Origin: a bacterium
GTDB taxonomy: Bacteria; Vulcanimicrobiota; Xenobia; Xenobiales; Xenobiaceae
Reading direction: 5' to 3'
DNA: 64,000 nt
Assembly: GCA_030535355.1 (NCBI GenBank)
Contig: JAUNIO010000007.1
Location: forward strand, 15,742 to 79,741
Part shown: positions 30,654 to 50,837 of the stretch, in pieces
Position numbering within the stretch: the stretch's first letter is position 1
Layout: the number at the start of each line of letters is the position of its first letter
Notes under the pieces: model-generated
What the model was told of the DNA's origin: nothing
What the model saw: the letters and a program-made list of their open reading frames with translations, nothing else
Databases searched by the model: none
Position numbers and translations under genes: made by a program

Positions 30654-30821
30654 GTTTTACTTTTTGTCGAAAAGTAAAATTTAAATGAAATAAAAGTAAA
30701 AATACTCTGCAAAAAGTAAAATGAAATATCTAAAAGTAAAATGAATCCTTACACTTTTGTTTAATAAGGCTTTTGTCAGATAATAGTTATTGTTTAAGGA
30801 ATTTGAGCAAAAGTAAAAATG
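30654..30821 (+). promoter_or_regulatory. array of AAAAGTAAAA(T) repeats upstream of and overlapping the start of the AlbA_2 gene
   Basis: Direct copies start near 30670, 30692, 30712 and 30732, about 20-21 nt apart. Another overlaps the ATG at about 30809, and an inverted copy lies at 30654-30665. Confidence 0.5.
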
Positions 30822-33330: not shown

Positions 33331-33689
33331 TATCAGCTGCCTGCCTTTCCGCTAAGCTCCATAATTGAATAAGTCCCCTATAATCAACGATATTACCTTA
33401 AACCTTTTTACAATTGCCTCATACAGCGTCACGCCGATCGCCTCTCCACTCCGCTCCTTCAAGCAAAGATATGATATTGCCCGCTTAGGCAATGGCCAGC
33501 TTAGAAAATGTAGAGAGGGGCGGCAGGGGAAATATCCCGAAAGCCCGCAAGCGCAATATGCGCGTGAAAGCTCCTGCCGCCATGTGTTTTCATGGCAGAA
33601 ACCAGCGTCCTGCTCATGAGGGAAGGCAGTTCCTTTGTTCTCCGCGCACCGGTCAGCTGCACCTGCAGACTAACATCACACCAGCGGAG

Positions 33690-33818
33690 CAATGCGGGAC
33701 GAACACAGCCAGAATCATTATTAACGTTGTTGCCATTAGTATTGATGTCGCCATCGTTATTTACGTTCGCGGCGTTATTACTATTATTGCCGGGGGAGCG
33801 GAGCCACCACCAACAAGC
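33690..33818 (-). repeat. DGR template repeat (TR)
   Basis: Matches the VR at 34419-34546. Read on the minus strand it encodes ACWWWLRSPGNNSNNAANVNNDGDINTNGNNVNNDSGCVRPA, with 13 AAY Asn codons. It lies between avd and the RT gene. Confidence 0.9.
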
Positions 33819-33853
33819 TCGCCCATACAACTGCCTCCCCATTCAAACCCGCT

Positions 33854-34258
33854 TTACGCAGGCTTAAATCTCTTTCTGTCAGAACTTATCCAAGCTCCGG
33901 TCAGGCGTTCCACATCTGTGGTCAGCCTAGAAATCATCTCAAACTGCTTCATGGTGAGCGCTTTCGACTCCATCGCCAGCTGAGAGACATAAGCCAAAAT
34001 TTTAGCCTCCGAGATGGACTTATGCTGAAATTCCAAGCGTATTCCCCAGCTGGCCAAGTTTTCCCGCGTGACAAACGTATCGTTAGCGCGATAAAGATTC
34101 TCCAATATATCCAGCGCCAGGTTCTGAAGCCTGCTCACAAAGGTAAACCTAAACTGCTTGGGAGATTTGGCCGTAGCGTTGATCACATAGCGGCACAAAT
34201 CCTTAGCTTTGGTGATAACCGTCAGTTCTGATTGATATTCTTTAGCCATATTAATCAA
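33854..34258 (-). CDS. avd: Avd-like four-helix-bundle accessory variability determinant
   Basis: 134-aa helical protein with the basic C-terminus GAWISSDRKRFKP. It lies between the target gene and the TR, as in canonical DGRs. Confidence 0.8.
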   Translation of the reverse strand: MINMAKEYQSELTVITKAKDLCRYVINATAKSPKQFRFTFVSRLQNLALDILENLYRANDTFVTRENLASWGIRLEFQHKSISEAKILAYVSQLAMESKALTMKQFEMISRLTTDVERLTGAWISSDRKRFKPA

Positions 34259-34418: not shown

Positions 34419-34546
34419 CAAAGCGGGACGAACACAGCCAGAATCATCATAAACGCAGCTGCCATTAGTATGGATGTCGCCATCGCAATCTAAGGACGCG
34501 GCGAGATACTACTATAGCCGGGGGAGCGGAGCCACCACCAACAAGC
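34419..34546 (-). repeat. DGR variable repeat (VR) at the 3' end of the target gene
   Basis: Compared with the TR it has 16 substitutions at TR adenines, one G-to-T change and a 1-nt deletion at an A. The last ~25 nt (GATTCTGGCTGTGTTCGTCCCGC) are identical, like an IMH (initiation of mutagenic homing) element. Confidence 0.9.
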
Positions 34547-35413
34547 GCCGTTATCCTTGTAATTTGCTATTCTCGCCTTACCTGAAGCAAACAGCGAACC
34601 CGCTTCATCAACGGACAGCAGGAAAAGCGTATCCTCACAGCCAACATCGCTAAGCTTCGTTTTCAGGATCCTGGTCCGATCTTTAGCGGAGAAATGCTTC
34701 TTTAAGAATTCACCGTTCAAGTATTGCCGCAAGCTACACCTGGCCCAGCTGTTGGTGCTCTGATCCGTATGAAACGCCCGTTGATCGACGCAATCCTTGG
34801 TGATGAGCAACGCGTTATCGCCAGATTTTCTCAGGACCAGCCAATCGAAGTCCCCGAAATGCACAATGCTGCCGACTTGAGCGCTTTTCATCACGGTCCG
34901 ATAGGCTTGTTCCTCTTTCGCTTCCTTCTCCTTCTCGACATCTTTCCTGCGCCGCTCTTCCTCAGCGCTGGCTCGGCTCTTTAATTCTGCCTCAAATTCC
35001 TGAAGCTCCAACTCGCTCAGCTTATTCTTGGTAGCCGCTAAAAGCACGCAATTCTCGAGGACGATACCCTTATCCTTAAGACTGATATTCTTCTCAGCTA
35101 TAGATAGGGCGAGGACGGGCCGGGGAAACTCCCCCAGCTCCAGCCCCACATATTTTACATTGCCCACCTGGTAGGGCGCGGTAAAGCGATGACCTATAAG
35201 ATACACGATCAGCTTTTCCCGCCTCTCTTCGGCAGCGCTTTCGAGTATGTCGTAAAGGTCTTCCTGGGACAAAGCAATAGAATCTATCTTCTTGAGGATT
35301 TCCGCATTATCCGTAATCCGGCGCAAACGCCCGAGTTTATTATCCTTTTCCGCAGCCAGAGGGTCGCTAATTTCCATTACGCTCTTAGATACATTGTTTT
35401 CCATTCTCGACAT
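34490..35413 (-). CDS. DGR target protein, C-type-lectin/FGE-like (WWLRSPG-type) variable domain; apparently truncated by a frameshift in the VR
   Basis: The C-terminus ...NGACWWWLRSPGYSSISPRP* overlaps the VR. The N-terminus has no signal peptide. A Lys/Glu-rich coiled-coil stretch lies mid-protein. Confidence 0.85.
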   Translation of the reverse strand: MSRMENNVSKSVMEISDPLAAEKDNKLGRLRRITDNAEILKKIDSIALSQEDLYDILESAAEERREKLIVYLIGHRFTAPYQVGNVKYVGLELGEFPRPVLALSIAEKNISLKDKGIVLENCVLLAATKNKLSELELQEFEAELKSRASAEEERRRKDVEKEKEAKEEQAYRTVMKSAQVGSIVHFGDFDWLVLRKSGDNALLITKDCVDQRAFHTDQSTNSWARCSLRQYLNGEFLKKHFSAKDRTRILKTKLSDVGCEDTLFLLSVDEAGSLFASGKARIANYKDNGACWWWLRSPGYSSISPRP

Positions 35414-35753: not shown

Positions 35754-36455
35754 CTACGGTTTAGACTCCGCAGACGGCTGCTTCTCTGGACGCTGAGGCG
35801 CGGTACTCGGAGACTCCGGCGGCGGAGCAATCGCTTTGGCCACAGAAGAGGGCTGGCGCGGCACCATCACCTTCGCAGCGGAAGAGGACTGACGCAGCGC
35901 AGGCGTTAGCCCCTTATCCAAGCTGCCGTATATTTTCAACCCCAGCCACCCCTTAGCGTTCAGGGACGTAACGGTCACGAGGGCATCGTTCTTGACGTCC
36001 TTGAGGCGCAGTCCCGGCCCAAACGGCTGCTCCTGCAGATCCAGAAAAGTCTGGAAATCCTCCTGTTTCCAAGGAATATCCTCATACTGGTTTCGCGAGG
36101 CCGCACTAGCCTGCCAAAGCTCATCCAGAATTCCCGTCATTTCAATAACTAGCGCAGGATCGCTGCTATCAGAGAGCAGACAGACACTCCTCCCCTCCAA
36201 AGAGGGCAGCTGCCCGCTCTTCCCCTGGTACGTATGCCCCTGCGGAAACTCCTGACTGTTTAAGCTCATGGCGTTTTTCCACTGCTGCAGATAGCCTTCC
36301 ATCTGTCCTGGGGCCTGGCTGGGGTCCTGACATTCCACCCCGTCTAAGCGCTTCAGATCAAATACCGTCGGATCTTCCCGCACTATATACGCCCAAACTT
36401 TATGATCGGAGAGGGCAAACAAATACCTGACAACCGTCACCTTCCGCGCACTCAT
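35754..36455 (-). CDS. hypothetical protein with a Pro/Ser-rich tail
   Basis: 233-aa ORF. Its start overlaps the upstream gene's stop by 4 nt (ATGA), suggesting translational coupling. Confidence 0.6.
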   Translation of the reverse strand: MSARKVTVVRYLFALSDHKVWAYIVREDPTVFDLKRLDGVECQDPSQAPGQMEGYLQQWKNAMSLNSQEFPQGHTYQGKSGQLPSLEGRSVCLLSDSSDPALVIEMTGILDELWQASAASRNQYEDIPWKQEDFQTFLDLQEQPFGPGLRLKDVKNDALVTVTSLNAKGWLGLKIYGSLDKGLTPALRQSSSAAKVMVPRQPSSVAKAIAPPPESPSTAPQRPEKQPSAESKP

Positions 36456-36940
36456 AGCAGATCATCGTCCTCCATCATTCTGCAGTTTTGCATCTCCCTG
36501 CGCCCAGCGGCAAACTCCCCCGCCAAGCTCTGCCACTGGCGGTTATGTTCGCGCTTCCAGTCGCCGCACCGCCGCTTCACCTGCTCTCTATGCTCCCGGC
36601 CTTCCCGCTCCAGCCTGCCGATCCGGGCCGCGGCCACCCGCATAGCTAAGGATTCCGCTCCGTCCACAGCCGCCGGGACTTCCCCTTTAGGCAGGCGCAA
36701 GGACTGCGACTCCAGCTTTTGCCGGGGTGACAGGCTCTGCTGGGCCTCCACACTGTTTTTATAACGCTTCAGCCCGTCGTTCAAGCGTTCGAAGCTCGCT
36801 TTATGTTCTTCTCCAGCTTTAGAGTGCAATTTTGCAGCAGCCTCGGCCTCCACTTGTTCGGTCACGGTTTTCTTTATTTTGGCACCCGACGAAGCTATCT
36901 CCCAGCTCTTCTTGTCCATTTCCTCCCAGCTCATCTGCAT
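36452..36940 (-). CDS. hypothetical helical, charged protein
   Basis: 162-aa ORF, coupled by a 4-nt overlap to the downstream gene. Confidence 0.55.
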   Translation of the reverse strand: MQMSWEEMDKKSWEIASSGAKIKKTVTEQVEAEAAAKLHSKAGEEHKASFERLNDGLKRYKNSVEAQQSLSPRQKLESQSLRLPKGEVPAAVDGAESLAMRVAAARIGRLEREGREHREQVKRRCGDWKREHNRQWQSLAGEFAAGRREMQNCRMMEDDDLL

Positions 36941-37044: not shown

Positions 37045-37959
37045 CTAGAGGCGCTCCGCCGCGCCCTGCTCGCGCTGCTCTGCCAAAGCTCCCTCGCGCA
37101 GCATCTTTTTATCCTCGGGAGCCATGCCGTAAGCATCGAAGATCATGGGGTCATCGCGCAGCAGCTTCTCGCGCTGCTCCTGCAGCTCCCCACGGTACAT
37201 CTTAGCCACAGCCTGGTGCGACTTATCCAAACTGGCCGCCCGCCAGTCGCGCAGAAGCTCCCGCAGCTGCACGGGATCGCGATCGGGGCAGTGCTTCTGC
37301 AGGGCCGCCAGCAGAGCATCTCTAAGACGCAGCATATCGTTCTCCGGCAGCAGGCCCTGCAGGTACTGCTTGATTTCCACCCTGCTGTAGCCGGACTGTT
37401 TAAAGGCTTCAATGACCGCCAGCTGCTCCTCCGGCTCCATGCGGCACAGCGCGGCCTGCTCCATAAAGGTATCCGGCAGCACGATCCCCTCGCGCTCACC
37501 GATCTCCTCTTTCAGAACGGTCACCCCCACAGCCTGGTAATTCACCTTTTCGGGCAGGTCCATCGCCTCAGTCTCCACTATCGGCAGTTTCTCTTTCAGG
37601 TAACCGTAGTAATCGGCAAAGGAGGGAAAATCTTTCCTTTCCATCCAGTCGGTCTTTTTGACGGCCTCGGCCACGCGGTAGCCGATCTCCTCCGCCACTT
37701 CTTGCTTAACGGTAATGCCCAGGGACTTCGCCAAGAAGGTGACCGTTTCCGAAACAAACTTCTCGGCCACCAGACCTAAAATCTGCCCAACGACAGGTCC
37801 CAGCGGCCCGCCCACCATGACGGCGGACAGCGCTCCTGTCAAAATGGAAGCCCCAGCGGATATGGCTCTTCCCACGCCGCTGAAAATGGCCTTACCGACG
37901 CTGCAGATACTGCTGACGCAGCTGCCGACAAGGCTGCATAAACCACTCAAGAAACCCAT
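37045..37959 (-). CDS. glycine-zipper membrane protein with a helical cytoplasmic domain
   Basis: The N-terminal ~70 aa (MGFLSGLCSLVGSCVSSICSVGKAIFSGVGRAISAGASILTGALSAVMVGGPLGPVVGQILGLV) carry repeated small-xxx-small motifs. Confidence 0.6.
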   Translation of the reverse strand: MGFLSGLCSLVGSCVSSICSVGKAIFSGVGRAISAGASILTGALSAVMVGGPLGPVVGQILGLVAEKFVSETVTFLAKSLGITVKQEVAEEIGYRVAEAVKKTDWMERKDFPSFADYYGYLKEKLPIVETEAMDLPEKVNYQAVGVTVLKEEIGEREGIVLPDTFMEQAALCRMEPEEQLAVIEAFKQSGYSRVEIKQYLQGLLPENDMLRLRDALLAALQKHCPDRDPVQLRELLRDWRAASLDKSHQAVAKMYRGELQEQREKLLRDDPMIFDAYGMAPEDKKMLREGALAEQREQGAAERL

Positions 37960-38167: not shown

Positions 38168-41100
38168 TCATTGAGTTCCTGCCCGCCAGGCCTGAGCTTC
38201 TAAATTGAAAAGCAAATCAAGCCTGGTCTTCTCGTCGAGTTCCAGCTCGCCCAGCCAATAGCGAAGCATCGTTTCCAGAGCCTCTGCTTTGCTGGCGCAG
38301 GTACGGCCATAGATATTCCCATAAATATAGTGCACCAGCAGGGCAAAATCCGCACCTTCCAGCTTAAGTTCCGAACGGACAAAGCCCAAATGTTCCTTAA
38401 ACGCTCCTTCCGGATTGTCGGCAGGTTTTTCGGAGTCTGTGATCACAGCCTGGCGATAGAGCTGCAGCAAACGCCTGTCCCGCATTAGCTGCAAGTATTT
38501 GCGCACTCTTTTCGGGGTAATTTCACCCGGGGAGAAATGCTCCAGTCCCGGCAGCACGCCCAGCTTACAGTTTTGGGGCTGAGCGTAATAAACTTCGGCC
38601 ACCTCCCGCACCTGCTCATCATCGGCCTCGAGCAGCTCTCCCGCATCGTTGTCGATCTTGACCTGCACGGCCTTGGGCCAGTCCTGGGTCAGCACGATGG
38701 CGTAGCCGGCGCGCAGATTGGAAAGGAAAGCTTTTTGGTCATCCTCCAAAGCCATAGTATTGCCGATAGCTTCCTTGTCGTCCTGAGCGAAGAGCCTGTG
38801 CACGATTTTGGTATTGGTGTTTTTCAGAACCTCCGGCGTCATCTTATCCGGGATTTGATCTACGATAATCAGAGACTCTCCGTATTTGCGCACCTCCGCC
38901 AGCATATTGGCGAAGACCTCGACGCCCTGGCGCTTGCTGGGGCTGTCGCCGGGCACAAAGCGGCTGAACAGGCGGTGGGCTTCCTCCACCAGGGTAATGT
39001 GCTGAAAGCGCCGGCCCTCTTTGCGTCTTGCGTAGTATTCCAGCTTCACGGCCTGAAGCAGATTGGTCATGATAAAGCCCATAATCATGGATTTTTCCGC
39101 GCCATTGCGGATCTCTTCCAGTTCAATAACCACCTGGCGGTGAATCAAATCGCGGAAATTCACCGAGCGCGGCGTGTTCAGCATCAGGCCCTTAGCTCCC
39201 ACCATCAGGCTGTTGATACGGGCGCGCAGAGAACCCAGGTACTCGGCTTGCAGGCGCTCGCCGAACTCCTGTTCTATGGTGACCTCCTCCACAGCCTTTT
39301 TGAAATCCGTTAGGGTAGGGAAAGCGTAGCTGCCCGGGGCGAAGGGGTCCTCCTTCTTCCCATTCACGAACCACTCGTCCGTGCTGACATTCCAGCCCTT
39401 ATACTCGTAAGCGCGATAGACGCCAGCCTCCAAAATTTGGGGAATAGCCGCTTCCATCTCAAAGGCCGCTTCCATGGTGGCCTTGATCATATCCGCCCGG
39501 GCCGACACCGGCTCGCCCGGAAACAGCTCAAAGGGATTGAGGTAAAAGGGCGCGGTATCCTGTTGGCCAGGCGTGAAATAGGTCAGCTGAGGGAAACGGG
39601 GCTGGCCTTGGTCATCTTTCTGGCCGTAGAGCGTGCGATACTCTGTCTTGACAGGTTCGATGACCAGAAAAGGTACGCCGCATTCGCGCAGGATTTTCTG
39701 ACAGGTCGTGGTCTTGCCGCTGCCCGTAACCCCGGCCACAAAAGTGTGCTTGTCGAGAACCCTTCTATCCAAGGCGATCGGCACCTGGCGGCGCACCGTG
39801 CCGCACTGCACCAGATGGCCCAGCTCCAAGCGATCTTCCTGCGGCTGCGGCACGTTCAGGCCGAATTCCACCTCCCGGCGCAGGCCCAGGCCGATAACAT
39901 CTCTTTGGGGCAGGCCCGTCAGAATTCCCAGCTCCTCGGCTGAAAGCCAGCTGCCGCAAAAGACCTTCTGATTCCCAGAAGTTTTCTGAGAGAGCGCCGC
40001 CATACCCAGGCGAACCAATTCCCCCTCCCGGCGCTTAGCATGAGGTATCTGCAGATTCTGCAGCGCTTCATAGCAGCGTTTGTGCTTGGGAGAGTCTCGC
40101 TCGATCTCGGCGAAGGATAAAGCCGAACGGTTGCCTTGCTGGCTGCTGTAGAGCGACATCGCCGTATTGGCCAGCCGGTACATGACCGGACGGTCGTCGC
40201 TGAAGAGAAATGCGCAGGTCAGGAAAAGCCCTTTGCCCCGCCCCCGATCCAGGCGAGGCAGCAGCACATCGTCCAGATATTTGCTCCAGCCCGAAGCTTC
40301 GCGGTTGTCACTGCGCAGCTGCACGGTTAAATTAACGCTGCGGCTGGAGCTGGAAGTGTCCGAACGCGTTTTGTGGTGCGCATAGGTGGTGCTGAAGCTG
40401 TCATCCCGGCTGCTGCCCGTCTGGGAGCCGCTGCTGCTGGATTGGCTGCTGCCATCCGTAGTGCTGTAAGAGTCGCTGTACTGGCGCTGCTCACTGCTGC
40501 TGGTAGAATAATTTTTCCGTCCATCATGCCCAGCGCTGTAATTTTCGGAATCACTCTCCGATTGGGTGTTCGAGCTACCGCCAGAAGACTTGTTATTCGA
40601 TGTGCTCTTCGACGAAGTCGAGGAATTGTGCTGGCCATATTCCTCGCTCGTATTGCTGCCCGCTGACGCCTGGACCTGGTTGGTGCGCGTATGGCGCACC
40701 TCCTCATCAGTGCGGTTGCTGCTCTCGCTCTCGTGCTGCGATTCCGTTTGGTGCACGCCGTGCGAGGACTGCCGGGCATGGCTGATGCTGCCGCTCGCAC
40801 TGTTGCTGTCTGAGCTGCCCTCTGTGAATTGCCGCGTCAGATTGGCCAGCGGGGCCAGCAAGTCGAAAACCCGCAGCAGGTCGGCCTCGAGAGCATCCAT
40901 TTCCGCTTCGGTATAGGGCTGGGCCAGCACCACAAAGCCAAAGCTGCTGCCCCCCATCACGTCGATCAGGCGGTCCACGCCCTGGAAATCTCCCTGAGCC
41001 TGATCGGGATCGGCCCCGGGCACTCCGGTCAGCACGCCGAAATATTTAGCACTGCGCATACGCTCCAGCACCTCAGCCTTCTCCGCCGCCCGGTTTTGCG

Positions 41101-41563
41101 AGCCCAGCTCGGTCACCTGGCTGCCCCGAAAATTGCCCTCTATGCTCGGCTTAAGGAGCTTGCTGACTAAATCGTACTCGTTGAGCTTGAATTCGGAGGG
41201 GTTATTTTCGGTGAGATCGCGGCCCACCCCGAAGTAAAAATCCACTTTGCCCTGGCCGTCGCCGAGGATTATGTAGATAAAATTCATGGCCTCGCAGCGC
41301 CGGAAGGCGCCCAGGATATTCTCCAGGGCCTCGCGGCGCGGGGCCTTTTCCTCGAACATGATCTCATCTATATGGCAGAGAAAAAACTGATCCGCGGCCA
41401 GACTGCGGGGCAACGGCAGCCATTCCGTTTCCCCCGCCAGCAGGGAACGGTGAGCGGGAGCGCGCAAATATTTGAGCAATTCCCGGGACTTCTCATTCTC
41501 AAGATCGGCCTTCTCCAGGTCCTGACCATCGGCTCCGCGCTGTTCAGCTCTCATCTCGTCCAT
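38168..41563 (-). CDS. HerA/FtsK-superfamily P-loop ATPase with an N-terminal unknown domain and a Ser-rich disordered insert
   Basis: Walker A is VAGVTGSGKTTT and the DEAH-like Walker B is ITLVEEAHRLF. A SLIIVDQIPDK motif is also present. Residues ~245-415 are low-complexity Ser/Thr/Asn/Gln. Confidence 0.8.
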   Translation of the reverse strand: MDEMRAEQRGADGQDLEKADLENEKSRELLKYLRAPAHRSLLAGETEWLPLPRSLAADQFFLCHIDEIMFEEKAPRREALENILGAFRRCEAMNFIYIILGDGQGKVDFYFGVGRDLTENNPSEFKLNEYDLVSKLLKPSIEGNFRGSQVTELGSQNRAAEKAEVLERMRSAKYFGVLTGVPGADPDQAQGDFQGVDRLIDVMGGSSFGFVVLAQPYTEAEMDALEADLLRVFDLLAPLANLTRQFTEGSSDSNSASGSISHARQSSHGVHQTESQHESESSNRTDEEVRHTRTNQVQASAGSNTSEEYGQHNSSTSSKSTSNNKSSGGSSNTQSESDSENYSAGHDGRKNYSTSSSEQRQYSDSYSTTDGSSQSSSSGSQTGSSRDDSFSTTYAHHKTRSDTSSSSRSVNLTVQLRSDNREASGWSKYLDDVLLPRLDRGRGKGLFLTCAFLFSDDRPVMYRLANTAMSLYSSQQGNRSALSFAEIERDSPKHKRCYEALQNLQIPHAKRREGELVRLGMAALSQKTSGNQKVFCGSWLSAEELGILTGLPQRDVIGLGLRREVEFGLNVPQPQEDRLELGHLVQCGTVRRQVPIALDRRVLDKHTFVAGVTGSGKTTTCQKILRECGVPFLVIEPVKTEYRTLYGQKDDQGQPRFPQLTYFTPGQQDTAPFYLNPFELFPGEPVSARADMIKATMEAAFEMEAAIPQILEAGVYRAYEYKGWNVSTDEWFVNGKKEDPFAPGSYAFPTLTDFKKAVEEVTIEQEFGERLQAEYLGSLRARINSLMVGAKGLMLNTPRSVNFRDLIHRQVVIELEEIRNGAEKSMIMGFIMTNLLQAVKLEYYARRKEGRRFQHITLVEEAHRLFSRFVPGDSPSKRQGVEVFANMLAEVRKYGESLIIVDQIPDKMTPEVLKNTNTKIVHRLFAQDDKEAIGNTMALEDDQKAFLSNLRAGYAIVLTQDWPKAVQVKIDNDAGELLEADDEQVREVAEVYYAQPQNCKLGVLPGLEHFSPGEITPKRVRKYLQLMRDRRLLQLYRQAVITDSEKPADNPEGAFKEHLGFVRSELKLEGADFALLVHYIYGNIYGRTCASKAEALETMLRYWLGELELDEKTRLDLLFNLEAQAWRAGTQ

Positions 41564-41642: not shown

Positions 41643-44600
41643 TCACTTCAGCTCCTGGCGGTGGGTTTTGCGCTGCACTTCGGGCTTAGCAAAATCTTCC
41701 GGCCGGCCCACGGCATACTCGATAGTGTTCGGATCTACTTTTCTGATATAGATGGCTGTGTCTGGGGAATCGCTAACCTCATCGTCATCCAAAGAGCAGA
41801 ACAGGCAAGAGACCGCTCTTTTCGGCAGCACACCCGGCTTCGCCGCCCGCGGCTCCGAGGTATAATAGAGGTAGAAACAGTTCTCATTGGCATAATCGTA
41901 TTTATTCCACACTCCATAACCGCCATTGGGAGGGATAACGGTATTAAATTTATCCTCGTCGTCGAGGTTGCCGAGATACCAAATAAAGGGAGCTTCTCCG
42001 TCCGCGCGGTTCTCATCGTCGATGCGCACGTCTTTGCCGCTGCGACGGCAGCGCAGCAAACCGAAGGCCACCCCGGTCTTACCGGTGCACGTGCGGTCCA
42101 GCTCAATGGCCAGGCGCTCTGCCTCAGCGGCAAGCGCGGCCTCCGTTTCCTTCTTAGCCTGGTCCGCTCCCGGCTGCTGATCGGAAGCGGCCTCCTCCTG
42201 CATACCCAGAGGCAAATGCAGGGCGAACATCACTTTGGTATTGGCCTCTTGACCGCGTTCTTCCAGGAGACGCTGCTGCCCGTTTTTCTCTATGGCCTCG
42301 ATCTTGCGCTGAAATAGCTTCTTAACCACCGGGCTTTTGCAGGAATTGCCCGCCAGCAAAATATGGATTGGCAGCTGTTTCAGACGGTCTGGGTAATTCT
42401 TTGGGCCAAATACCTGAAACAGCATATCGAAAAAGTTATCCACCCCGACTTCAATGCGGCGTTCGACGAGCTTTTCCAAGGCGTCGACTTTGATCACCAG
42501 CTTGACGGAGACGGGACCCTGCTGCTCTCCACCCAAACTGTACAGATTAATACTCGTATTTCCTTTGCTGAACTTGTTTTGATACCCCTCATGTTTTTCC
42601 CAGATGGGACGCATAAGCTCGGCCAGCGCCCGCCGGTTCATATAGGCCTCCTGCGGTGCCTGATCGGTTTTGTACACCAGCCGCTCCGCGCCCGCGAAAG
42701 GCTCCGCATCCGGCGGCAGCACAAAAGGAATAAACATAGAGCGCATCACCTGCAGGTTATCCTTATAGACCTCATAAGCCATGAGGTTCAGTAAATTTTC
42801 CCCGCCTAAGTTAACATCGCCGCTGGCCCCAAACTGATGCAGGATAAATTTGCCAAAGCGCCTATCCTCGGGTTTCTCCTCGACACCGAAATCGAAATCG
42901 GTCGTGCCCCCGCCGAAATCGAAGATCGCATAGGAGACGCGCTGCCCGCTCTCCTTGGGCTGCAGTCCCAACTCTTTCAAAGCGCAGGCGGCATAAGCGG
43001 CAGGCTCGCTGACGAGCGAATCGACGAAAAAGTATTTCATGACTTTATCATCGCTAAGAATGGAGGGCGGCAAAGATTTTCTCAGGCCGCGCTCAAAGCT
43101 GGCCTTCAGGCGCCCACACACATCTTTGCCGTAATTGACGGGAAACGACAAATTATAGCGCAGAAAAATGCCGTGCATCATGTTGTTGATGTACAGGCCC
43201 AAATAATAGGCGTAAACCTCGATAGGGTCGAAATCACCATTCTCGAGTTCCAGATAAGGCTTCAGCTCCAAGTCGCGCCCTTGGCCGTCCTCTAAAAGCA
43301 GGCGGCGTTTCCTATCGTTGGCCCACTGCTTCAGCTCGCTGAATATCGAGTATCCGCCTATGTCTTTCAGATCATTATAGGCTTGATGGGAAACCGTCAG
43401 TTGCTCCCATTCGGTCAAAGGACGCCCCTCGCGGGCCTCGTAGGCGCGGCGGAAGCCCTGCAGATCGCGCAGTTCGATCACCGTGGGGTTTTCAAAATCC
43501 TCCAGCACGGGCGCGGCAGCGTAATTGCCCTTGCCCACGCGCAGCAGACGCTCGTCCGTGCCGCGCGCACAGGCTACCACCGTGCTCTTGGTGCCAAAGT
43601 CAATGGCAACCTCGCCATTTTGGATTATATCATTTTGGGGAGGGCGCGCGAAAACCGGCTGCTCCAGCTGAATAGCGGAGTACCCCGCCTCATCGCGCTG
43701 CTTTAACCCTTCAAAGAGTTCCCAATGTCCCTTGTTGCGGTCGGTCAGCTGATCTTCAGAGTATGGAGTCAGATCGGCCCTGCGCTTATCGGAGTTAAGG
43801 TAATAATCGAAGATGAGCTTAACGTCGCTGCCCGAGAGGACGGCGTCGGTATTAGCCTGATAATCGTACCTGACGCCATAGACCGAACGCTTGATCCTGC
43901 CCGCCCGGAAATTCGCTAAAAGAGCGCCTATTTTCAGAGAAATGCCGCCTTTAGCCTCTTCTAGGTAAGGCAAAAATACTTTTAAATCCTCAGCATACGG
44001 CGTTTCCAGCATACGCCGGAACGCGTCTTCCTGCTCGGCGCTCAAGCCCTCGGGTATGAGTTTCCAGCACAAAAGCTCCCAAATGGTTTCGGGATAGCTC
44101 AAGGGCAGGGCATTGTTCCCCCGCAGCCGGCAGACAGCCATAAGAGGAAACTGCACGCTCTGGCCCACGGCCGCTAATCTCCCCGCCTCTTGGGCGTTGC
44201 CGTTATTGAAGCTTAAAAGCCGCCCGCTCTCTGTTTTTAAGTCGTTTTTCAAACCTCCAAAAGAGCCGCTAAAGAGATAGCTTTTATAGGTGCTTCCCGC
44301 TATTTGCAAATATCCGGCTTCATTTAAATAAGGATTGCCATTGCCCTGGCAAAACGTCCGCATTCCCTCCTGAGCGGTCACCGGCTCAAACCGCAGCCCG
44401 CCGCAGGCCAGTTCAGTATAAGCGCCCACCTCCGCAGCGTAATGGCCGCAGCCCAGCCGTAAGCTTACTCCCGCCTTCTCCCATTGAGGATAGAGGCCCG
44501 CCACCTGGCGGTCCAGCCACAGCGGATCGCTTTTCATCTTTATAAAGCGCCTGTCGCAGGGTTCGCGCAGCAGGTTTAACAGCTCGGTGAACTCGCGCCC

Positions 44601-44708
44601 CAGCTGGCCCAAACCGTCATCAGCCTTTTTAATTATGCTGCTTTCTATTTTCGTTTTGGGCAGTTTTACGCTTTTCACGGGAATGGGAGTAACTGTACAC
44701 AAATCCAT
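41643..44708 (-). CDS. Hsp70/actin-fold ATPase-like protein with large N- and C-terminal extensions and no canonical substrate-binding domain
   Basis: Hsp70 nucleotide-binding motifs are present: AIDFGTKSTVVA (phosphate-1), SEPAAYAA, IFDFGGGTTDFDFG (phosphate-2) and ILLAGNSCKSPVV (adenosine). Confidence 0.8.
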   Translation of the reverse strand: MDLCTVTPIPVKSVKLPKTKIESSIIKKADDGLGQLGREFTELLNLLREPCDRRFIKMKSDPLWLDRQVAGLYPQWEKAGVSLRLGCGHYAAEVGAYTELACGGLRFEPVTAQEGMRTFCQGNGNPYLNEAGYLQIAGSTYKSYLFSGSFGGLKNDLKTESGRLLSFNNGNAQEAGRLAAVGQSVQFPLMAVCRLRGNNALPLSYPETIWELLCWKLIPEGLSAEQEDAFRRMLETPYAEDLKVFLPYLEEAKGGISLKIGALLANFRAGRIKRSVYGVRYDYQANTDAVLSGSDVKLIFDYYLNSDKRRADLTPYSEDQLTDRNKGHWELFEGLKQRDEAGYSAIQLEQPVFARPPQNDIIQNGEVAIDFGTKSTVVACARGTDERLLRVGKGNYAAAPVLEDFENPTVIELRDLQGFRRAYEAREGRPLTEWEQLTVSHQAYNDLKDIGGYSIFSELKQWANDRKRRLLLEDGQGRDLELKPYLELENGDFDPIEVYAYYLGLYINNMMHGIFLRYNLSFPVNYGKDVCGRLKASFERGLRKSLPPSILSDDKVMKYFFVDSLVSEPAAYAACALKELGLQPKESGQRVSYAIFDFGGGTTDFDFGVEEKPEDRRFGKFILHQFGASGDVNLGGENLLNLMAYEVYKDNLQVMRSMFIPFVLPPDAEPFAGAERLVYKTDQAPQEAYMNRRALAELMRPIWEKHEGYQNKFSKGNTSINLYSLGGEQQGPVSVKLVIKVDALEKLVERRIEVGVDNFFDMLFQVFGPKNYPDRLKQLPIHILLAGNSCKSPVVKKLFQRKIEAIEKNGQQRLLEERGQEANTKVMFALHLPLGMQEEAASDQQPGADQAKKETEAALAAEAERLAIELDRTCTGKTGVAFGLLRCRRSGKDVRIDDENRADGEAPFIWYLGNLDDEDKFNTVIPPNGGYGVWNKYDYANENCFYLYYTSEPRAAKPGVLPKRAVSCLFCSLDDDEVSDSPDTAIYIRKVDPNTIEYAVGRPEDFAKPEVQRKTHRQELK

Positions 44709-44830
44709 ATCTCTATACCTCCGGCCTCCAGCAGCCTGCTGCAGCTAGGGCAGCCAGGCAGAAGCGGCCTCTGAACTAACAAATATGACCAACGATTATT
44801 ACCAACAAATATTAAACTTCTGTCCTGTCC

Positions 44831-46111
44831 TCACTCCACATGAACGATGCTCTTCCTGATCATCTTAACACGGCCGCCTATGCGCTCCAGATACAGATTG
44901 CGGTAGCCCGGCAGCAGGACCCGCGTAACCCGGCCCTGAGCGCGGCTGGAACGATCCGGCGTGTGGCGGTCCATATCGTAGGGCTGTCCGGCCGCCTCAT
45001 CGGCCTGCGCATAAACCTCTTCCGATTTAGAGGCATTCACCAGCTGCATAGCATAGCTGAACAGTTCGCGCAGATATTGCAGGTCAGCAGCGGCCCCCTC
45101 GCGCAGGCACAGTTCCATCTCGTCCCAAATGCTCTCCAAACCATCATCCTGGGCCCCGCCGCAGATAAAAGACATAAAGCTGGGCTGACGGCAGAGGCAC
45201 TCCAGACGCTGGCGGCTCGCCGGGCGCAGATTTTCCCAGCGCTGATAGAGGTCCCAGCCCTCGGGAAAGCGCTGCTGCAGCTGATTATCCAGCTCTTCAT
45301 TGACATCTTCCAGCTCATTCTTCTGCTGCTGCAGTTCTGTCAGCTTAGCGTTTAATTGGCTGCGGAGCCGCTGTTCGCGCTCGCGGGCTTCGTCAAGGTC
45401 GCGCTGGTACTTAGCGGTAATCTCCCTTACCGCTTCCTCCTTCTCTTCCGCCTTCTGCCGGGCGACATCAGCCAGCCGCCTCACCTCCTCCTGGGCCCTG
45501 CTGACCTCCTGCTGGGCCGAAGTTCGTATCTGGCGAATCTCCCGCTCGGACTCCGCTTTAATCCGGCTGCACTCGCGCTCGGACTCTTCCTTAAGACTGG
45601 CACATTGCTGCTGAGCGCTCGCAAGCTTTTGACTTAACTCCCGGTTAGCATCCGTATGCCCTTTGCACAAGCGCTGCAGCTCTTGGTAATTCTGCTGCAG
45701 CTCTCGATGCTGCTTCTCCAGGCCTGCGTAACTGCTGTTTAGTTCTGCATATTGACTTTCGAGCTGGCCATATTGATTTTTAAGCTCTTTGATTTCTCTA
45801 GACTGCTCTTCACTCGCTGGCGTAGTTGCTAACTGCTCTTGCGTCCCGTACTGCTGATTCTGGCCCAAGAGCAGGCTAGCGTCAGGGCCACCATCTCTGC
45901 CGCTATCCCTTGAGCGCGAGTTTGTCATTGAGTGCGAGTTGACAGCGGTTTTTCTAGTTGAGCTTTCACCTGCGCCTTCAGCGCGGGACTGCACTACCTC
46001 GCGCAGCTTCTGCTGAATCTCGGATTCGTCCAACAAATTTAGCACCAGCTCTAAAAGGCTGGCGCGCGATTTGCTGTTTTTATTATAATTCTCGTTTCTG
46101 GCGAAACACAT
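44831..46111 (-). CDS. long coiled-coil protein with a GrpE-like C-terminal domain
   Basis: Contains ~200 aa of heptad-like Glu/Gln/Arg-rich sequence. The C-terminus GQPYDMDRHTP...GRVTRVLLPGYRNLY...MIRKSIVHV resembles the GrpE pattern G.xFDPxxH...V..V.xKGY....R.IRxxMV.V. Confidence 0.6.
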   Translation of the reverse strand: MCFARNENYNKNSKSRASLLELVLNLLDESEIQQKLREVVQSRAEGAGESSTRKTAVNSHSMTNSRSRDSGRDGGPDASLLLGQNQQYGTQEQLATTPASEEQSREIKELKNQYGQLESQYAELNSSYAGLEKQHRELQQNYQELQRLCKGHTDANRELSQKLASAQQQCASLKEESERECSRIKAESEREIRQIRTSAQQEVSRAQEEVRRLADVARQKAEEKEEAVREITAKYQRDLDEAREREQRLRSQLNAKLTELQQQKNELEDVNEELDNQLQQRFPEGWDLYQRWENLRPASRQRLECLCRQPSFMSFICGGAQDDGLESIWDEMELCLREGAAADLQYLRELFSYAMQLVNASKSEEVYAQADEAAGQPYDMDRHTPDRSSRAQGRVTRVLLPGYRNLYLERIGGRVKMIRKSIVHVE

Positions 46112-46487: not shown

Positions 46488-47792
46488 CTAATCTATCTTC
46501 TTAGCGTTAACCGAAGATAAAGCCGTGGTTGCAGAAGCCCGATCGCGGCCCTGGGCCACCTGGACATTCTCGAACATCCAATCGGCTAATTTCTGGTTGT
46601 CTTTATCGGGATCGATAGTCTCAAAGGTAACGGTATATTCGCCTTCCGGCAGAGCTATTTCCGCGATTTCCCCGACGTTGTAGGACATGTCCAGCGCAGC
46701 TGCGGGAGGCTTATCCTCTTCGCCCTTTTTATAAAACTTGAGATTGGATAAAGCGTTGTGGGCAGCGTTCTTGATGGTGATCAGCCCCCAAGTGCGGCGG
46801 TCAGGAGCGCCACATGTTCTGATTGTACGGCGTAATAGCGCAGGTCACGGCGTAATAGTCCCCGGCTTTGCCGCTGTTGCAGGACTGCATATAGAGGGGA
46901 TAGACCTTGAAATTAACGTCGACGGAACTCGAAGCATTAATCTTATGCTCTTCCTGCAAAGTATAGCATTTGTCACAGGCCTCATTCAGAGAAAAGGGGA
47001 AGTTGGCGGTGAAGCTAACTCCATCATTGTCGATATCGGTTACCAGGCTGTCGTAGTCATAACCGTCTTTGTCCTGCGAAAAAGAATGGTCTTCTCTAAG
47101 CAGCTTTTCGCTCGCTACCCGATTCAGCCAGCGCACCAGAGGAGTTACGCGCCCATGACAATACTCTGCCGTATCGTCTTGGCTAGAGCTATCAGAGCTG
47201 CCCCAGCTGCCAGAACTATCAGAGCTATTTTGACTGTTTTGACTACTTTGGCTATTTTGCGGCCAATCACCGCCGCAGGCGCTCTGACCATAGACTGTAT
47301 ACTGCTTATTAAGATTGCAGGCCGCATAAAACAGCACATCGGTGCCAGGCAGCTTAGAGGGAACGCTGATGGCGGACTGATTTAACTGGGAAAGCTCTAG
47401 GGACGCTTCCGGCTTAACTACGACTATCACTGCGCCGCGATCCCAGCTTTTTTGCAGATCGCGGCATTGCTCGCGTACTCGTCTGGGGCGCAGAAGATTA
47501 TGTCAGCTTCAGCGGCGGCGGCCCGATTAGGGAAACGCTGGCGGAGAACGTCCTGCATCATATCGGAAATAGCAGATATATCCCCAAAATGCACGGTGCT
47601 CTCGCACACTTCCTTAGAGTCAAGTTCCACGCTGTCATCAATAACGGCCGGTCCGTAAGCGGGAACAGCGTCCGCGGCACTCCCACTTTTATTTCTGTCA
47701 CTATCACCACAAGCGGTGATGCCGGCTGACAAAGCCGCTGCTAAAGAAAAAACAGCTGCTATCTTGGCAGTATGGCGAATCAGCAGTTTCAT
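46488..47792 (-). pseudogene. decayed lipoprotein paralog B (frameshift plus ~700-bp internal deletion)
   Basis: Three ORF fragments (47427-47801, 46801-47430, 46488-46688) align colinearly with paralogs A and C. The frame breaks at about 47430. The segment between QNMW and DRRTWG is missing. Confidence 0.8.
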
Positions 47793-47937
47793 AATCGTCA
47801 CCTCCGATTCCTTAAGTATTACTGCAATGACGTGCAGCCGGGTAATGCTCTGAGTTAGGCAATGCTAGTCAACTAATCACCAAACATACAATATTAAATG
47901 ATTATTCAATTATTTAACAAGATTATCAATTAATTAA

Positions 47938-48240
47938 TCATCTGATTAAGGACACTAAACTGCAAATAATAATCAAAAACGTGATCTCATAGACCATGCC
48001 CAGGGAAAGCACAGAGGTGCCTCCATAAAAGGCCGAGCACTTGCCCGGCTCCTGCGCATCGCTGATCGCGCTGCCCTTGACTGCAGCAGGCGCACTGACA
48101 GCAGCGGGACTGCAGGAAGCTACCGCCATGATCTCCTGGCTTTCAGGGCACGGGATAAGGCCAGCAGATAAAGCAGTGGCCCAGGAATAAACAGCTGCCA
48201 TGTGGGCGATATTTAGGCTCGGATTCTTCATAATCTCCAC
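47938..48240 (-). pseudogene. short remnant of a lipoprotein-family gene (signal-peptide-like N-terminus only)
   Basis: The N-terminus MKNPSLNIAHMAAVYSWATALSAGLIPC resembles the family's signal peptide and lipobox. The family's conserved upstream region lies at 48300-48660. Confidence 0.35.
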
Positions 48241-48760: not shown

Positions 48761-50719
48761 CTACTCTATTATCTTGGCATTGACCGAGGAAAGAGCGGTG
48801 GTAGCAGCAGCCTTGTTCCGGCCCTGTTTCACCTTGACATTTTCGAACATCCAGTCGGCCAATTTCTGATTGTATTTATCGGGATCGATAGTCTCGAAAG
48901 TGACCGTGTATTCGCCTTCGGGGAGGGCAATCTCGGCGATTTCCCCGATGTTGTAGGACATATCCAGCCGGGCCGCGGGTTCCTTGTCTTCTTCGCCTTT
49001 CCTGAAGAACTTAATGTTCGACAAAGCGTTGTTGGCGGCATTTTTAATGGTGATCATACCCCAGGTGCGGCGGTCGGGGGCGGGCATATCCCAGGTGTGG
49101 TTTTTCACCCAGATAGGAGTGAAGGTCTTAACCCCGCCGGCCTTGTCCGAAGCGGTGGGACAATACATCCAGCTGTAATTCGAATACTGTAAAAGCCCGT
49201 CAAAACTGAGCGTAAATGAAGTATCGCTGTTGTCGTCCACTCCGGCGGTCCCTCTGGGCACGAACCAGATCCAGGACTGGCGCACGGTCCACTGGGTGCG
49301 GCAGTTCTTGGGCCAGTATCTGTCCCAATCATCGCTCTTGGAAGGGTGGACATTTTTGGAATCGTAGTCGTAATGCGGCTGATTGGTGGAACTATCCAAG
49401 GTATAGTCGATATCGTCCATGGAGTAGTTGGTGCTGCTGTTCACTGTATGGCTAAAAGAAGCGGTCACGCTTCCCGCAGGATTACCGGAGGCAAATCCTC
49501 CGGAGACGGAACCGGAAATAGTATCGCTGGTGCCGTTGCTGTAACTGCGGGAATTGATAGCGTTTTCCGGCACGGGCGTCCGATAGTATTTGACACCTGA
49601 GACAGGAACGCCGTTTTTGTCGAGCAGGCGAATGGTAGTGGCCATGTGCTTAAACCAATAGCCGACCATATAGACTTCGGAGACAATCCCGGTCGAACAG
49701 TGCCAAGTGCGCCACATATTCTGATTATACGGCGTGATGGCACAGGTTACAGCGTAATAGTCACCCGCTTTGTCGCCGTTGCAGGACTGCATGTAGAGCG
49801 GGTACACCTTGAAGTTGACGTCAAAGGAGCTGGCAGCGGAGATGGTATGTTCACACTGGCGAGTGTAGCATTTTTCGCAAGGCTCACACAGAGAGAACGG
49901 AAAATTGGCTGAAAGGTTTTTTCCCTCATTATCGATGTTGGTCACCATGCTGTCGTAATCGTAACCGCTGCTGTCCGCGGAAGCGGAGTTCAGCGCCTTC
50001 AGGCTTAAGCCGCTGTCCGGCTGTTTGTTTTCGAGATTTTTATTCAGCCAATGCACGAGCGGGGTCACGCGGCCGCCGCAGTAAGCGTTGGCTTCTTCCA
50101 CGTCATAGCTGCCCGCAGCCAGGTCGTCTTCCACACCGTGCTCACCGTAAACAGAATATTCCTGATTATTATTGCGGGAAGCGTGAAACAGCAGATCGCC
50201 GCCGGGCAGTTCATCAGATACGCCGAAGCTCTTGCTACTGGCTTTGCGCTCGTCTTTGCCGTATTCAGGTTTAACGATAACTATGCACGCCCCGCGTTCC
50301 CGGCACTCCCGCAGCTCAGCGCTGCGGCATAACTCATCCTGCGTGCAGAAGAGTACTTCGGCTTCAGCCGCTTTGGTTTGCTTGGGGAAACGCTCGCGCA
50401 AAGCCGCCTGCATATCGGCGGACAGAGAAGATATGTCTCCGAAATATACTGACGCCTCACAGTCTTCCAGCGGATCCAGTTCCACGCTGTCGTCGATAAC
50501 GGCGGGACCGTCAGCGGCAGAATCGCCGTCAGGTCCACTGACAGAACGTTCCTGCCCGCTGACGGCAGGAACAGAAACCTCGGCGGCCTCTCTTTTGCCG
50601 GTGCCGCTGACCGAGCATTCCGGCCCGCTGTCATCACAGGCGGTTATGCCGGCCGATAAAACCGCAGCCAGAGAGAAGACGGCTACCGCCATACCAGTAT
50701 TGCGAATCAGTTGCTTCAT
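48761..50719 (-). CDS. lipoprotein, paralog C
   Basis: I moved the start to MKQLIRNTG at 50719. The lipobox is LSAGITAC. It is colinear with paralog A, including the C-terminal MSYNxxEIAEIALPEGEYTVTFETIDPDK domain. Confidence 0.8.
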   Translation of the reverse strand: MKQLIRNTGMAVAVFSLAAVLSAGITACDDSGPECSVSGTGKREAAEVSVPAVSGQERSVSGPDGDSAADGPAVIDDSVELDPLEDCEASVYFGDISSLSADMQAALRERFPKQTKAAEAEVLFCTQDELCRSAELRECRERGACIVIVKPEYGKDERKASSKSFGVSDELPGGDLLFHASRNNNQEYSVYGEHGVEDDLAAGSYDVEEANAYCGGRVTPLVHWLNKNLENKQPDSGLSLKALNSASADSSGYDYDSMVTNIDNEGKNLSANFPFSLCEPCEKCYTRQCEHTISAASSFDVNFKVYPLYMQSCNGDKAGDYYAVTCAITPYNQNMWRTWHCSTGIVSEVYMVGYWFKHMATTIRLLDKNGVPVSGVKYYRTPVPENAINSRSYSNGTSDTISGSVSGGFASGNPAGSVTASFSHTVNSSTNYSMDDIDYTLDSSTNQPHYDYDSKNVHPSKSDDWDRYWPKNCRTQWTVRQSWIWFVPRGTAGVDDNSDTSFTLSFDGLLQYSNYSWMYCPTASDKAGGVKTFTPIWVKNHTWDMPAPDRRTWGMITIKNAANNALSNIKFFRKGEEDKEPAARLDMSYNIGEIAEIALPEGEYTVTFETIDPDKYNQKLADWMFENVKVKQGRNKAAATTALSSVNAKIIE

Positions 50720-50837
50720 AATCTTCACCCCGCTTCCCCACGGAATTATTGACAATTCTTGATTATATATTCAGTCAGCAAAATAGACTATCAAGAACAT
50801 CATTATTTTAACTTTAGTATTTAATTAACAGATTAAT

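Follow-up and report, generated by a model that had tools for sequence, protein, structure and literature searches.

Few protein machines have been studied as thoroughly as Hsp70 and GrpE, and the mechanism of the DnaK-GrpE pair is established (structure 1DKG). In HerA-scaffolded defence, as in SIR2-HerA and DUF4297-HerA, a hexamer assembles and activates the partner effector. An Hsp70 together with its own GrpE occurs inside predicted conflict systems centred on GAP1-N2 GTPases, in which the GTPase is combined with FNIII/DnaJ or TPR proteins, the HSP70 and GrpE domains are recognisable and some of the Hsp70s are devoid of a peptide-binding domain; these systems have Actinobacteria and Firmicutes as their main hosts (Kaur, Burroughs, Iyer, Aravind 2020, PMC7159879). 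Other described proteins of this kind are the Hsp70-like CnuD of CoCoNuT systems, which has degenerate ATPase motifs and is paired with McrBC-type GTPases (PMC11090510), and a lidless DnaK-like sensor domain, about 50% identical to DnaK, which is fused to EACC1-protease modules (PMC12642450). Here we analyse a row of six open reading frames (ORFs) on the minus strand, designated genes A to F, in a 64-kb stretch of contig JAUNIO010000007.1 from a bacterium of the Xenobiaceae (assembly GCA_030535355.1). This whole stretch is called the window, and coordinates are positions within it. Gene A (46111..44831, minus, 426 amino acids, aa) encodes a coiled-coil protein with a GrpE-like C-terminal domain, and gene B (44708..41643, minus, 1021 aa) encodes a protein whose predicted fold and family profile assign it to the Hsp70 clade in spite of very strong divergence, and whose ATP site is intact. 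Both ORFs lie exactly where the original prediction, made from the letters of the window alone, had placed them, and beyond these two genes the pair forms the front of a six-gene cassette A-B-C-D-E-F. On balance we think it probable that B works as an ATP switch of the Hsp70 type, served by an exchange factor of its own, and that A-B constitutes the core of a cassette of the conflict, anti-phage type with a HerA/membrane output.

The pair resembles canonical DnaK/GrpE in several respects. B has an Hsp70-type nucleotide-binding domain (NBD) in which the catalytic residues are kept and probably the same order of NBD, linker and beta-domain, A joins a GrpE-type beta-domain to what its model predicts to be a long helix and a helical hairpin, and the two genes are adjacent. 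Unlike canonical Hsp70s, B shows about 13% structure-based identity, carries a 345-aa N-terminal domain and large NBD insertions and has no lid, and unlike canonical GrpE, A has a conserved helix near its N-terminus, a coiled coil that varies and is often very long, and an extra helical insert with the sequence FICGGAQ. The pair also differs from DnaK/GrpE in having no Pfam HSP70 match, no GrpE match at threshold and no DnaJ partner, and in being encoded by accessory genes of patchy occurrence. In contrast to the GAP1-N2 systems (PMC7159879), the present cassette contains neither a GTPase nor a J domain, its partner is of the HerA type, and A and B are too divergent for Pfam. In contrast to CnuD (PMC11090510) and to the protease-fused DnaK-like domain (PMC12642450), B keeps its ATPase motifs invariant and is predicted to have an exchange factor dedicated to it. 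A relationship to CoCoNuT/McrBC systems was rejected, as there is no GTPase in the cassette. The ATPase domain of C matches those of SIR2-HerA and DUF4297-HerA (8xau, 8j4u, 9c1m) and mad8 of MADS, whereas C differs from HerA-scaffolded systems by about 570 extra N-terminal residues and by its partners, which are A-B and D instead of a SIR2, nuclease or methylase. Since Hsp70 plus GrpE conflict modules have already been reported (PMC7159879), a dedicated exchange factor for an Hsp70 paralog is not as unusual as originally thought. The theme is known, but the B family, for which no Pfam model exists, and the cassette appear to be undescribed, and our searches found no literature description of either.

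As single sequences, A and B gave nothing usable against Pfam, NCBIfam, PADLOC, PHROGs and PDB, and family alignments were required. For B, neither a Pfam match nor any relative among PDB sequences was obtained in this way, and NCBIfam HscA/DnaK models gave just 13-16 bits with cut-offs above 600, so that curated thresholds are not reached. Within the NBD (residues 346-890; 42039..43673, minus), which motifs, Foldseek and hhalign define as Hsp70-type with insertions, several stretches are invariant in 34 homologues of 40-54% identity. These are AIDFGTKST (residues 368-376), which we take to be the phosphate-1 motif, E568 within SEPAAYA, presumably the catalytic glutamate, FDFGGGTTDFDFG (residues 596-608), which includes FDFGGGTTD and would be phosphate 2, GDxxLGGEN (residues 630-638), presumably the Hsp70-specific signature, LAGNSCKSP (residues 785-793) as the assumed adenosine motif, and TGKTGVAFGLL (residues 875-885), which we take to be the last NBD helix. 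The alignments support these assignments as well. From PDB sequences, the family profile of B retrieves nothing but DnaK/Hsp70 NBDs, with a best E of 0.005 and in three collinear pieces, and a comparison by hhalign with a small alignment of true DnaK gives a probability of 95% (E 2e-8), residues 566-806 aligning with residues 143-330 of DnaK, while lobe I aligns weakly but collinearly (P 0.005). An AlphaFold model of B with the family alignment as input reached a mean predicted local distance difference test (pLDDT) of 75.5, and its top 50 Foldseek matches in PDB are all Hsp70s (DnaK, BiP, Hsc70, Ssb, and mortalin), the best one with E 8e-17 and probability 1.0, and top matches are 12-15% identical. 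In structure and in the GDxxLGGxD signature B is nearer to Hsp70 than to other ASKHA families. The divergent Hsp70-fold ATPase of the original prediction, to which Foldseek, hhalign and the profile search of PDB all point, is thus borne out, as is the claim that all nucleotide-binding motifs are kept, the phosphate-1, phosphate-2 and adenosine motifs and E568 being invariant.

The regions on either side of the NBD are less familiar. Residues 1-345 (43674..44708, minus) comprise an alpha/beta domain and a highly conserved segment preceding the NBD (residues ~300-360); no relative of this region was detected in Pfam or among PDB sequences, and a profile test against DnaK was not significant. The first ~220-280 residues are swapped for other sequence in many relatives, and the variant N-termini and longer ends of eight B relatives contain no Pfam domain and hence reveal no effector. 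Towards the C-terminus the NBD reaches to about residue 890, leaving about 130 aa, and not the C-terminal domain of about 250 aa that had been proposed. From the model and from Foldseek alignment lengths, this remainder (residues 891-1021; 41646..42038, minus) would consist of a linker and an all-beta domain of ~130 aa. The modelled C-terminus has about 9 strands and ends in beta at residue 1019; a helical lid is not seen in the model, and no helical domain follows residue 1019. Alignment lengths in Foldseek are also the basis for comparing this domain with the beta part of the DnaK substrate-binding domain (SBD-beta): B aligns over ~690 columns with constructs comprising NBD and SBD-beta (e.g., 5obu, 518 aa) and over ~447 columns, ~240 fewer, with NBD-only structures (5obx, 370 aa). 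Furthermore, KDVRIDD...FIWYLG of B (KDVKIIN...FPYxLG in the family, with the linker KDV(K/R)I and the strand FxYxLG) is collinear with VKDVLLLD...PLSLG of DnaK. The beta domain of B therefore probably sits in the position of SBD-beta, and owing to the longer alignments with NBD plus SBD-beta and the collinear linker and strand we regard B as an Hsp70 that lacks the lid and carries an extra N-terminal domain, a reading likelier than an NBD with unrelated ends. Of the earlier statement that there is no DnaK-type substrate-binding domain, the part concerning the helical lid holds, whereas the beta domain probably corresponds to SBD-beta.

Protein A begins with an amphipathic helix, SLLELVLNLLDESEIQQKLREVV (residues 18-40; 45992..46060, minus; family pattern hxxLLxxLxDxxVxxKIxxIV), which is kept in all family members read, including a short form of 178 aa (P0133). 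A coiled coil follows (residues ~95-285; 45257..45829, minus), assigned from matches and composition. Residues 95-285 consist to 52% of E, K, R, D, and Q, and in Pfam, PADLOC and NCBIfam scans residues ~84-285 match solely coiled coils of the SMC/MukB/Rad50/DivIVA type, in line with the ~200 aa of coiled coil announced before. ORFs of the A family beside B range from 190 to 472 aa; P0133 is shorter and has almost no coiled coil, its N-terminal helix being joined to the C-terminal domain by ~10 residues. This form and the spread in length suggest that the coiled coil is an optional spacer of very variable length, so that the description of A as a giant coiled-coil protein, correct for the ~190-aa coiled coil of the window protein, applies to lineages and not to the family. 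The C-terminal domain (residues 282-426; 44834..45268, minus) comprises a helical part with F-x-x-FICGGAQ, invariant in the A family, a helical hairpin and a beta-domain, and over 13 members these 145 aa show a mean column identity of 60%.

It is the last portion, a GrpE-type beta-domain (residues ~358-426; 44834..45040, minus) recognised by hhalign with a shuffle control and by hidden Markov model (HMM) ranking, that ties A to GrpE. Its family pattern, G-x-x-[FY]D-x-D-x-H ... QG-x-[VI] ... GYRN-x-Y ... [IM][RK]KS[IV]V-x-V, keeps the GrpE positions Gly and Asp of G-x-x-FD, His, GY, Arg/Lys, and V-x-V, while Pro of the GrpE FDP is not conserved. When the A family was compared by hhalign with 12 annotated GrpE genes taken from plasmid/chromid records of eight phyla or classes, a probability of 92% (E 7e-7) was obtained over 59 columns, which are exactly the GrpE beta-domain. 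The score of 47.2 stands against 10.9 +/- 1.9 (maximum 18.3) for 100 column-shuffled GrpE alignments and 10.5 for a reversed one. A profile match to GrpE had been set beforehand as the test, and at family level it is significant. Five of the 13 members match Pfam GrpE (PF01025) below threshold, all five with the extreme C-terminus on profile positions 94-164 of 165. A full-length GrpE HMM was discarded because it picked up A mainly via coiled-coil composition. An HMM built from the C-terminal third only was searched against the 8,494 ORFs of 83 related loci, and the top 14 are all A-family proteins, each aligning its C-terminus with the model end; the hits are individually weak, but this ranking cannot be chance. 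By the shuffle control and this ranking, chance resemblance of A to GrpE is ruled out. Homology of A to the GrpE beta-domain is therefore well supported at the level of family profiles, and the remaining GrpE architecture is plausible from the AlphaFold model of residues 261-426 (pLDDT 83.7), which shows a long helix for the end of the coiled coil, two short helices (FICGGAQ), a helical hairpin and a small beta-domain. For the same protein we infer nucleotide-exchange activity.

The word-indexed search for homologues of B found at least 499, none of which bears a name other than 'hypothetical' or has a Pfam domain, and a scan with one genome per species gave more than 446 relatives. The best 80 of these >446 matches made up the locus set, which as a consequence is biased towards Negativicutes. 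Relatives occur mostly in Selenomonadales/Veillonellaceae and Phascolarctobacterium, but also in Bacillaceae (Peribacillus, Ureibacillus, Lysinibacillus, Neobacillus, and Evansella), in Paenibacillus, Lachnospiraceae, Ruminococcaceae and Natroniella, in a metagenome-assembled genome (MAG) of the Cloacimonadota, and on plasmids of Acinetobacter piscicola and a Helicobacter; the closest relative of B from the window, 51% identical, is encoded in a rumen Selenomonadales MAG. An exhaustive search of 1.84 billion representatives with the B profile retrieved 706 clusters (at 50% identity) at E<=1e-30 and just 1,088 at E<=1e-3, which indicates a discrete family that does not merge into canonical Hsp70, and canonical Hsp70s are not retrieved at E<=1e-3. 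IMG/VR viral contigs and GenBank phages yielded no member of the family, and a phage origin of the family was rejected on this account.

Orthologues of the window's A are 55-58% identical to it. Word-indexed searches with A, either full length or C-terminal domain, gave few sequences, and more were taken from the loci. Of the 83 B genes, 48 have an ORF with the C-terminal domain of A immediately upstream, in agreement with the pairing of an Hsp70-like with a GrpE-like gene seen in the window, and the B genes without it are mostly second or third tandem copies, the others being explained by truncated contigs and one Selenomonas subfamily. A-B is thus a conserved, co-inherited pair and the core of a mobile module. 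One to three tandem B copies follow a single A, for example in L001/L002 (Megasphaera), L006 (Acinetobacter plasmid), L108, L109, and L111, and in Veillonella (L050/L054/L062) an additional B copy is located after the last cassette gene. B proteins of the oral Selenomonas/Centipeda subfamily (L040-L049, L051, L053, L055, L056, L058, and L063; e.g., L043 8815-12412) have a different N-terminus, and their genes are preceded by those for a 234-aa protein with a transmembrane helix at its N-terminus and a helical region, and for a Crp-like regulator. A-B occurs alone in Peribacillus, Ureibacillus, Lysinibacillus, Ruminococcaceae, and many Lachnospiraceae. In Ureibacillus xyleni (L066 3406-8747), a canonical HSP70-VWA fusion (Pfam HSP70 3e-102, VWA 9e-21) is encoded directly upstream of A-B, with a 1096-aa protein of no family beside it, so that a second Hsp70-based module adjoins the pair.

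The cassette layout A-B(1-3 copies)-C-D-small-small is present in 30 loci including the window, from Negativicutes, Bacilli and the Acinetobacter plasmid; on this plasmid the genes are arranged C-D-...-A-B-B. Gene C follows B in 30 loci, and gene D after C is conserved in 27. In the window the gaps A-B, B-C, C-D, and D-E measure 122, 79, 208, and 104 nucleotides, the end of E and the start of F overlap by 4 nucleotides, and the G+C content of the 36-46 kb segments is 55-57%, as opposed to 46-52% in the flanking DNA on both sides. A scan for promoters and terminators was uninformative.

Gene C (41563..38168, minus, 1131 aa) encodes a P-loop ATPase of the HerA/FtsK clade, with the ATPase domain at residues ~575-990 and the Walker A motif GVTGSGKT at 611-618. 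It matches Pfam DUF87 (25.7 bits, cut-off 23.2), PADLOC mad8 (7e-21) and many HerA models, and NCBIfam CedD (4e-25) and HerA, and its family profile retrieves the HerA structures 8yho (1e-13), 4d2i, 8xau, 9c1m, and 8j4u from PDB; weak matches to CedD, VirB4, and TrwB types were obtained as well. Judged from these matches, C is a HerA-type ATPase whose nearest counterparts are the HerA proteins that take part in defence. Its ~570 extra N-terminal residues contain an N-terminal domain and a Ser-rich stretch. This low-complexity stretch of ~180 aa (residues 250-430; 40274-40816, minus) contains 31% Ser and is kept as a feature in orthologues; the NCBIfam model ser_rich_anae_1 matches residues 540-957, after the Ser-rich stretch, with 1e-16, well short of the cut-off, and thereby hints that Ser-rich HerA-like proteins form a larger group among anaerobes.

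Gene D (37959..37045, minus, 304 aa) encodes the sole cassette protein with membrane-like segments (residues 1-26 and 32-65). Its hydrophobic, Gly/Ser/Ala-rich N-terminus contains 19 small-xxx-small pairs within the first 70 residues and is followed by a conserved helical domain; profile searches of Pfam and PDB with D gave no known family. Gene E (36940..36452, minus, 162 aa) encodes a charged, helical and fast-evolving protein; most cassettes have a small ORF here, but E can be recognised by sequence in the closest locus alone. Gene F (36455..35754, minus, 233 aa) carries an N-terminal motif common to the cassettes, (K/R)YLh...G...Y....YW.W, as seen from positional conservation and from an alignment read by hand, and belongs to no known family in Pfam, PADLOC, or NCBIfam. 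Both E and F have diverged too far to be traced by iterative search.

In independent loci, genes known from defence are found a few kb or less from the cassette. In one of these, a NERD-UvrD helicase of the type associated with reverse transcriptases (2e-64) is encoded together with WYL and FtsK-gamma proteins, in another AbiLi/AbiLii (9e-66) are neighbours, and in yet another WYL, HEPN, HipA toxin-antitoxin pairs and an integrase occur. The background of the cassette differs by lineage (Lpt genes, rpsO-pnp, comEA-comEC), and its distribution is patchy across phyla, plasmids included. Differing housekeeping backgrounds combined with defence neighbours are what one expects of a mobile module that is self-contained and frequently inserts into defence islands.

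By analogy with DnaK and GrpE, A would form a dimer via its coiled coil and bind one B through the beta-domain and adjacent helices. The beta-domain of A, placed on the NBD of B, would open the nucleotide cleft and release ADP, so that B might cycle on its own clock, independent of the cell's own GrpE. The N-terminus of GrpE docks on the substrate site of DnaK, and one may speculate that the N-terminal helix of A docks on the beta-domain of B, as a pseudo-substrate or docking element. B itself might be an ATP-gated clamp or sensor in which the variable N-terminal domain and the beta-domain hold or recognise a protein ligand. The absence of a lid and of a J partner, the variable N-terminus, and the tandem copies make an ATP-gated binder or sensor the more fitting role, rather than a folding machine. 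B would then license an output by the HerA-type hexamer C and by D, for example membrane damage or translocation. Control of C and D by B is suggested by analogy to HerA-scaffolded defence systems and to lidless DnaK-like sensors (PMC12642450). From these likenesses we infer that A exchanges nucleotide and contacts B, that B is a sensor and that the cassette serves defence. A more specific version, in which the six genes are an undescribed abortive-infection system against phages, B, its cycle set by A, sensing a phage protein through the variable N-terminal domain and the beta-domain and releasing or activating C and the glycine-zipper-like D so that the cell is killed or arrested, with the A-B pair as a minimal version, is tentative and in our estimation rather doubtful.

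Several observations weigh against A-B being an Hsp70 switch with its exchange factor at the core of a conflict cassette. The window's A has no GrpE match at all in Pfam, and the best A orthologue reaches E 2e-4 and 21.4 bits against PF01025, below the gathering cut-off of 25.8. Of the original claim that the C-terminus follows the GrpE consensus, the quoted strings are indeed present and the family profile lies far beyond chance, whereas the window protein on its own lacks the Pfam match. The alignment of A with GrpE is limited to the ~60 columns of the beta-domain, the FICGGAQ insert in the helical part is without counterpart in GrpE, and a search of PDB sequences with the profile of the A C-terminal domain did not retrieve GrpE. 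Foldseek ranks Thermus thermophilus GrpE (3a6m) first among PDB structures for the A model, over 165 columns, but the match is not significant (E 0.37, TM-score 0.28); such a low score is not surprising for the model of an elongated monomer, yet it is no evidence. For B, the comparison of its C-terminal region with DnaK SBD-beta by hhalign was not significant (P 0.15). At the level of loci, no A is detectable in the 16 loci of the oral Selenomonas subfamily (B of ~890 aa), and many A-B-only pairs lie among housekeeping genes (GerA operon, aminotransferase), without C/D or defence neighbours. System models of PADLOC-DB v2 do not match A, B, D, E, or F; C alone matches (generic HerA, mad8), and A yields coiled-coil noise. 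Scans with Pfam, PADLOC, and NCBIfam found no J-domain protein in the cassette, so that a cycle of these proteins would differ from that of canonical DnaK/DnaJ/GrpE. Finally, the whole reading was reached by computation.

Alternatively, A and B might form a dedicated chaperone that folds, assembles or holds one client, be it C, D, or, in two-gene loci, an unlinked protein, with no role in conflict. HscA/HscB serve IscU as dedicated chaperones, and a role of this kind would agree with the Hsp70-type linker and beta-domain of B, with the A-B pairs that stand alone by housekeeping genes in many Bacillota, and with the position of the cassette in several related genomes, where it stays at a single place on the chromosome, flanked by HhH-GPD and GATase. 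We nevertheless consider it unlikely, as there is neither a J-domain co-chaperone in the Pfam, PADLOC, and NCBIfam scans nor a lid in the model, the genes are patchy across phyla and on plasmids, defence genes are recurrent neighbours, and tandem expansions and variable N-termini of B are unusual for a housekeeping chaperone. The character of C and D calls to mind a translocation apparatus for secretion or DNA transfer, since C belongs among the FtsK/HerA pumping ATPases and has the weak CedD, VirB4, and TrwB-type matches mentioned above, D is the only membrane-like protein, and the cassette is found on a mobilizable plasmid. C would then pump DNA or protein through a channel formed or anchored by D, with B and A as pulling or unfolding motor, much as mitochondrial Hsp70-Mge1 acts as a motor at the import channel. 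This is improbable to us, given that no transmembrane segment is seen in C, that its best matches are cytosolic HerA proteins of defence systems, that A-B exists without C/D in many genomes, and that the Pfam, PADLOC, and NCBIfam scans of the cassette revealed neither a relaxase nor a pilin, and no WXG100 protein or other substrate for secretion.

The superfamily of B, which unites actin, Hsp70 and sugar kinases, the long coiled coils of A and the presence of the genes on plasmids might also recall a cytoskeletal or partition system, in which B would polymerise like ParM, MreB, or FtsA, A would be a mere scaffold and its GrpE likeness convergent or irrelevant. All top structural matches of B are, however, Hsp70s and no actins, the Hsp70-specific signature GDxxLGGE is invariant, the similarity of A to GrpE is statistically robust, and in some A members the coiled coil is dispensable whereas the GrpE-like domain is always retained, which makes a polymerising B highly improbable. 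An Hsp70-type switch with its own exchange factor, serving a conflict cassette, remains our preferred reading.

If the identification holds, the Hsp70/GrpE cycle would have been copied, have lost lid and J-protein, have gained new end domains and have been wired to a HerA-type motor, a natural case in which the cycle of a chaperone serves anew as a switch. This A/B branch is invisible to Pfam and annotated as 'hypothetical protein' throughout its ~700 clusters, which extend over Negativicutes, Bacilli, Clostridia, and plasmids of Acinetobacter and Helicobacter, and two profiles would allow annotators to name several thousand proteins. If true, the cassette would be a candidate defence system for anaerobes of the gut, rumen and mouth, on which current defence catalogues offer little, and A-B would offer structural biologists a minimal pair of Hsp70 and exchange factor working without DnaJ.

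The surroundings of the cassette in the window are accessory and defence-like, as the original prediction of an accessory island had it. About 2.4 kb from the cassette end lies a gene for a reverse transcriptase of 349 aa (32281-33330, minus; Pfam RVT_1, PADLOC RT 1e-36, DRT UG17 4e-30), with an ORF of 163 aa and no family beside it (33492-33983, plus) and a Schlafen AlbA_2/HATPase_c_4/Fic-like_C protein (30819-32309, plus) that resembles proteins associated with prokaryotic Argonautes (5e-18); these three look like a separate defence gene set. A DUF6273-domain protein of 307 aa (34490-35413, minus) is encoded between cassette and reverse transcriptase. On the other side of the cassette, lipoprotein-like genes are followed by arginine decarboxylase. 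The intact lipoprotein-like protein of 664 aa (48761-50755, minus) belongs to no Pfam family, and just downstream lie broken paralogous copies of it (46801-47430, 47427-47801, and 47938-48240, minus). ORFs of 124 and 100 aa repeat its signal-peptide/lipobox end and one of 209 aa its middle (...VDVNFKVYPLYMQSCN..GDYYAVTCAITPYNQNMWR), so that these copies look like a decayed tandem duplicate.

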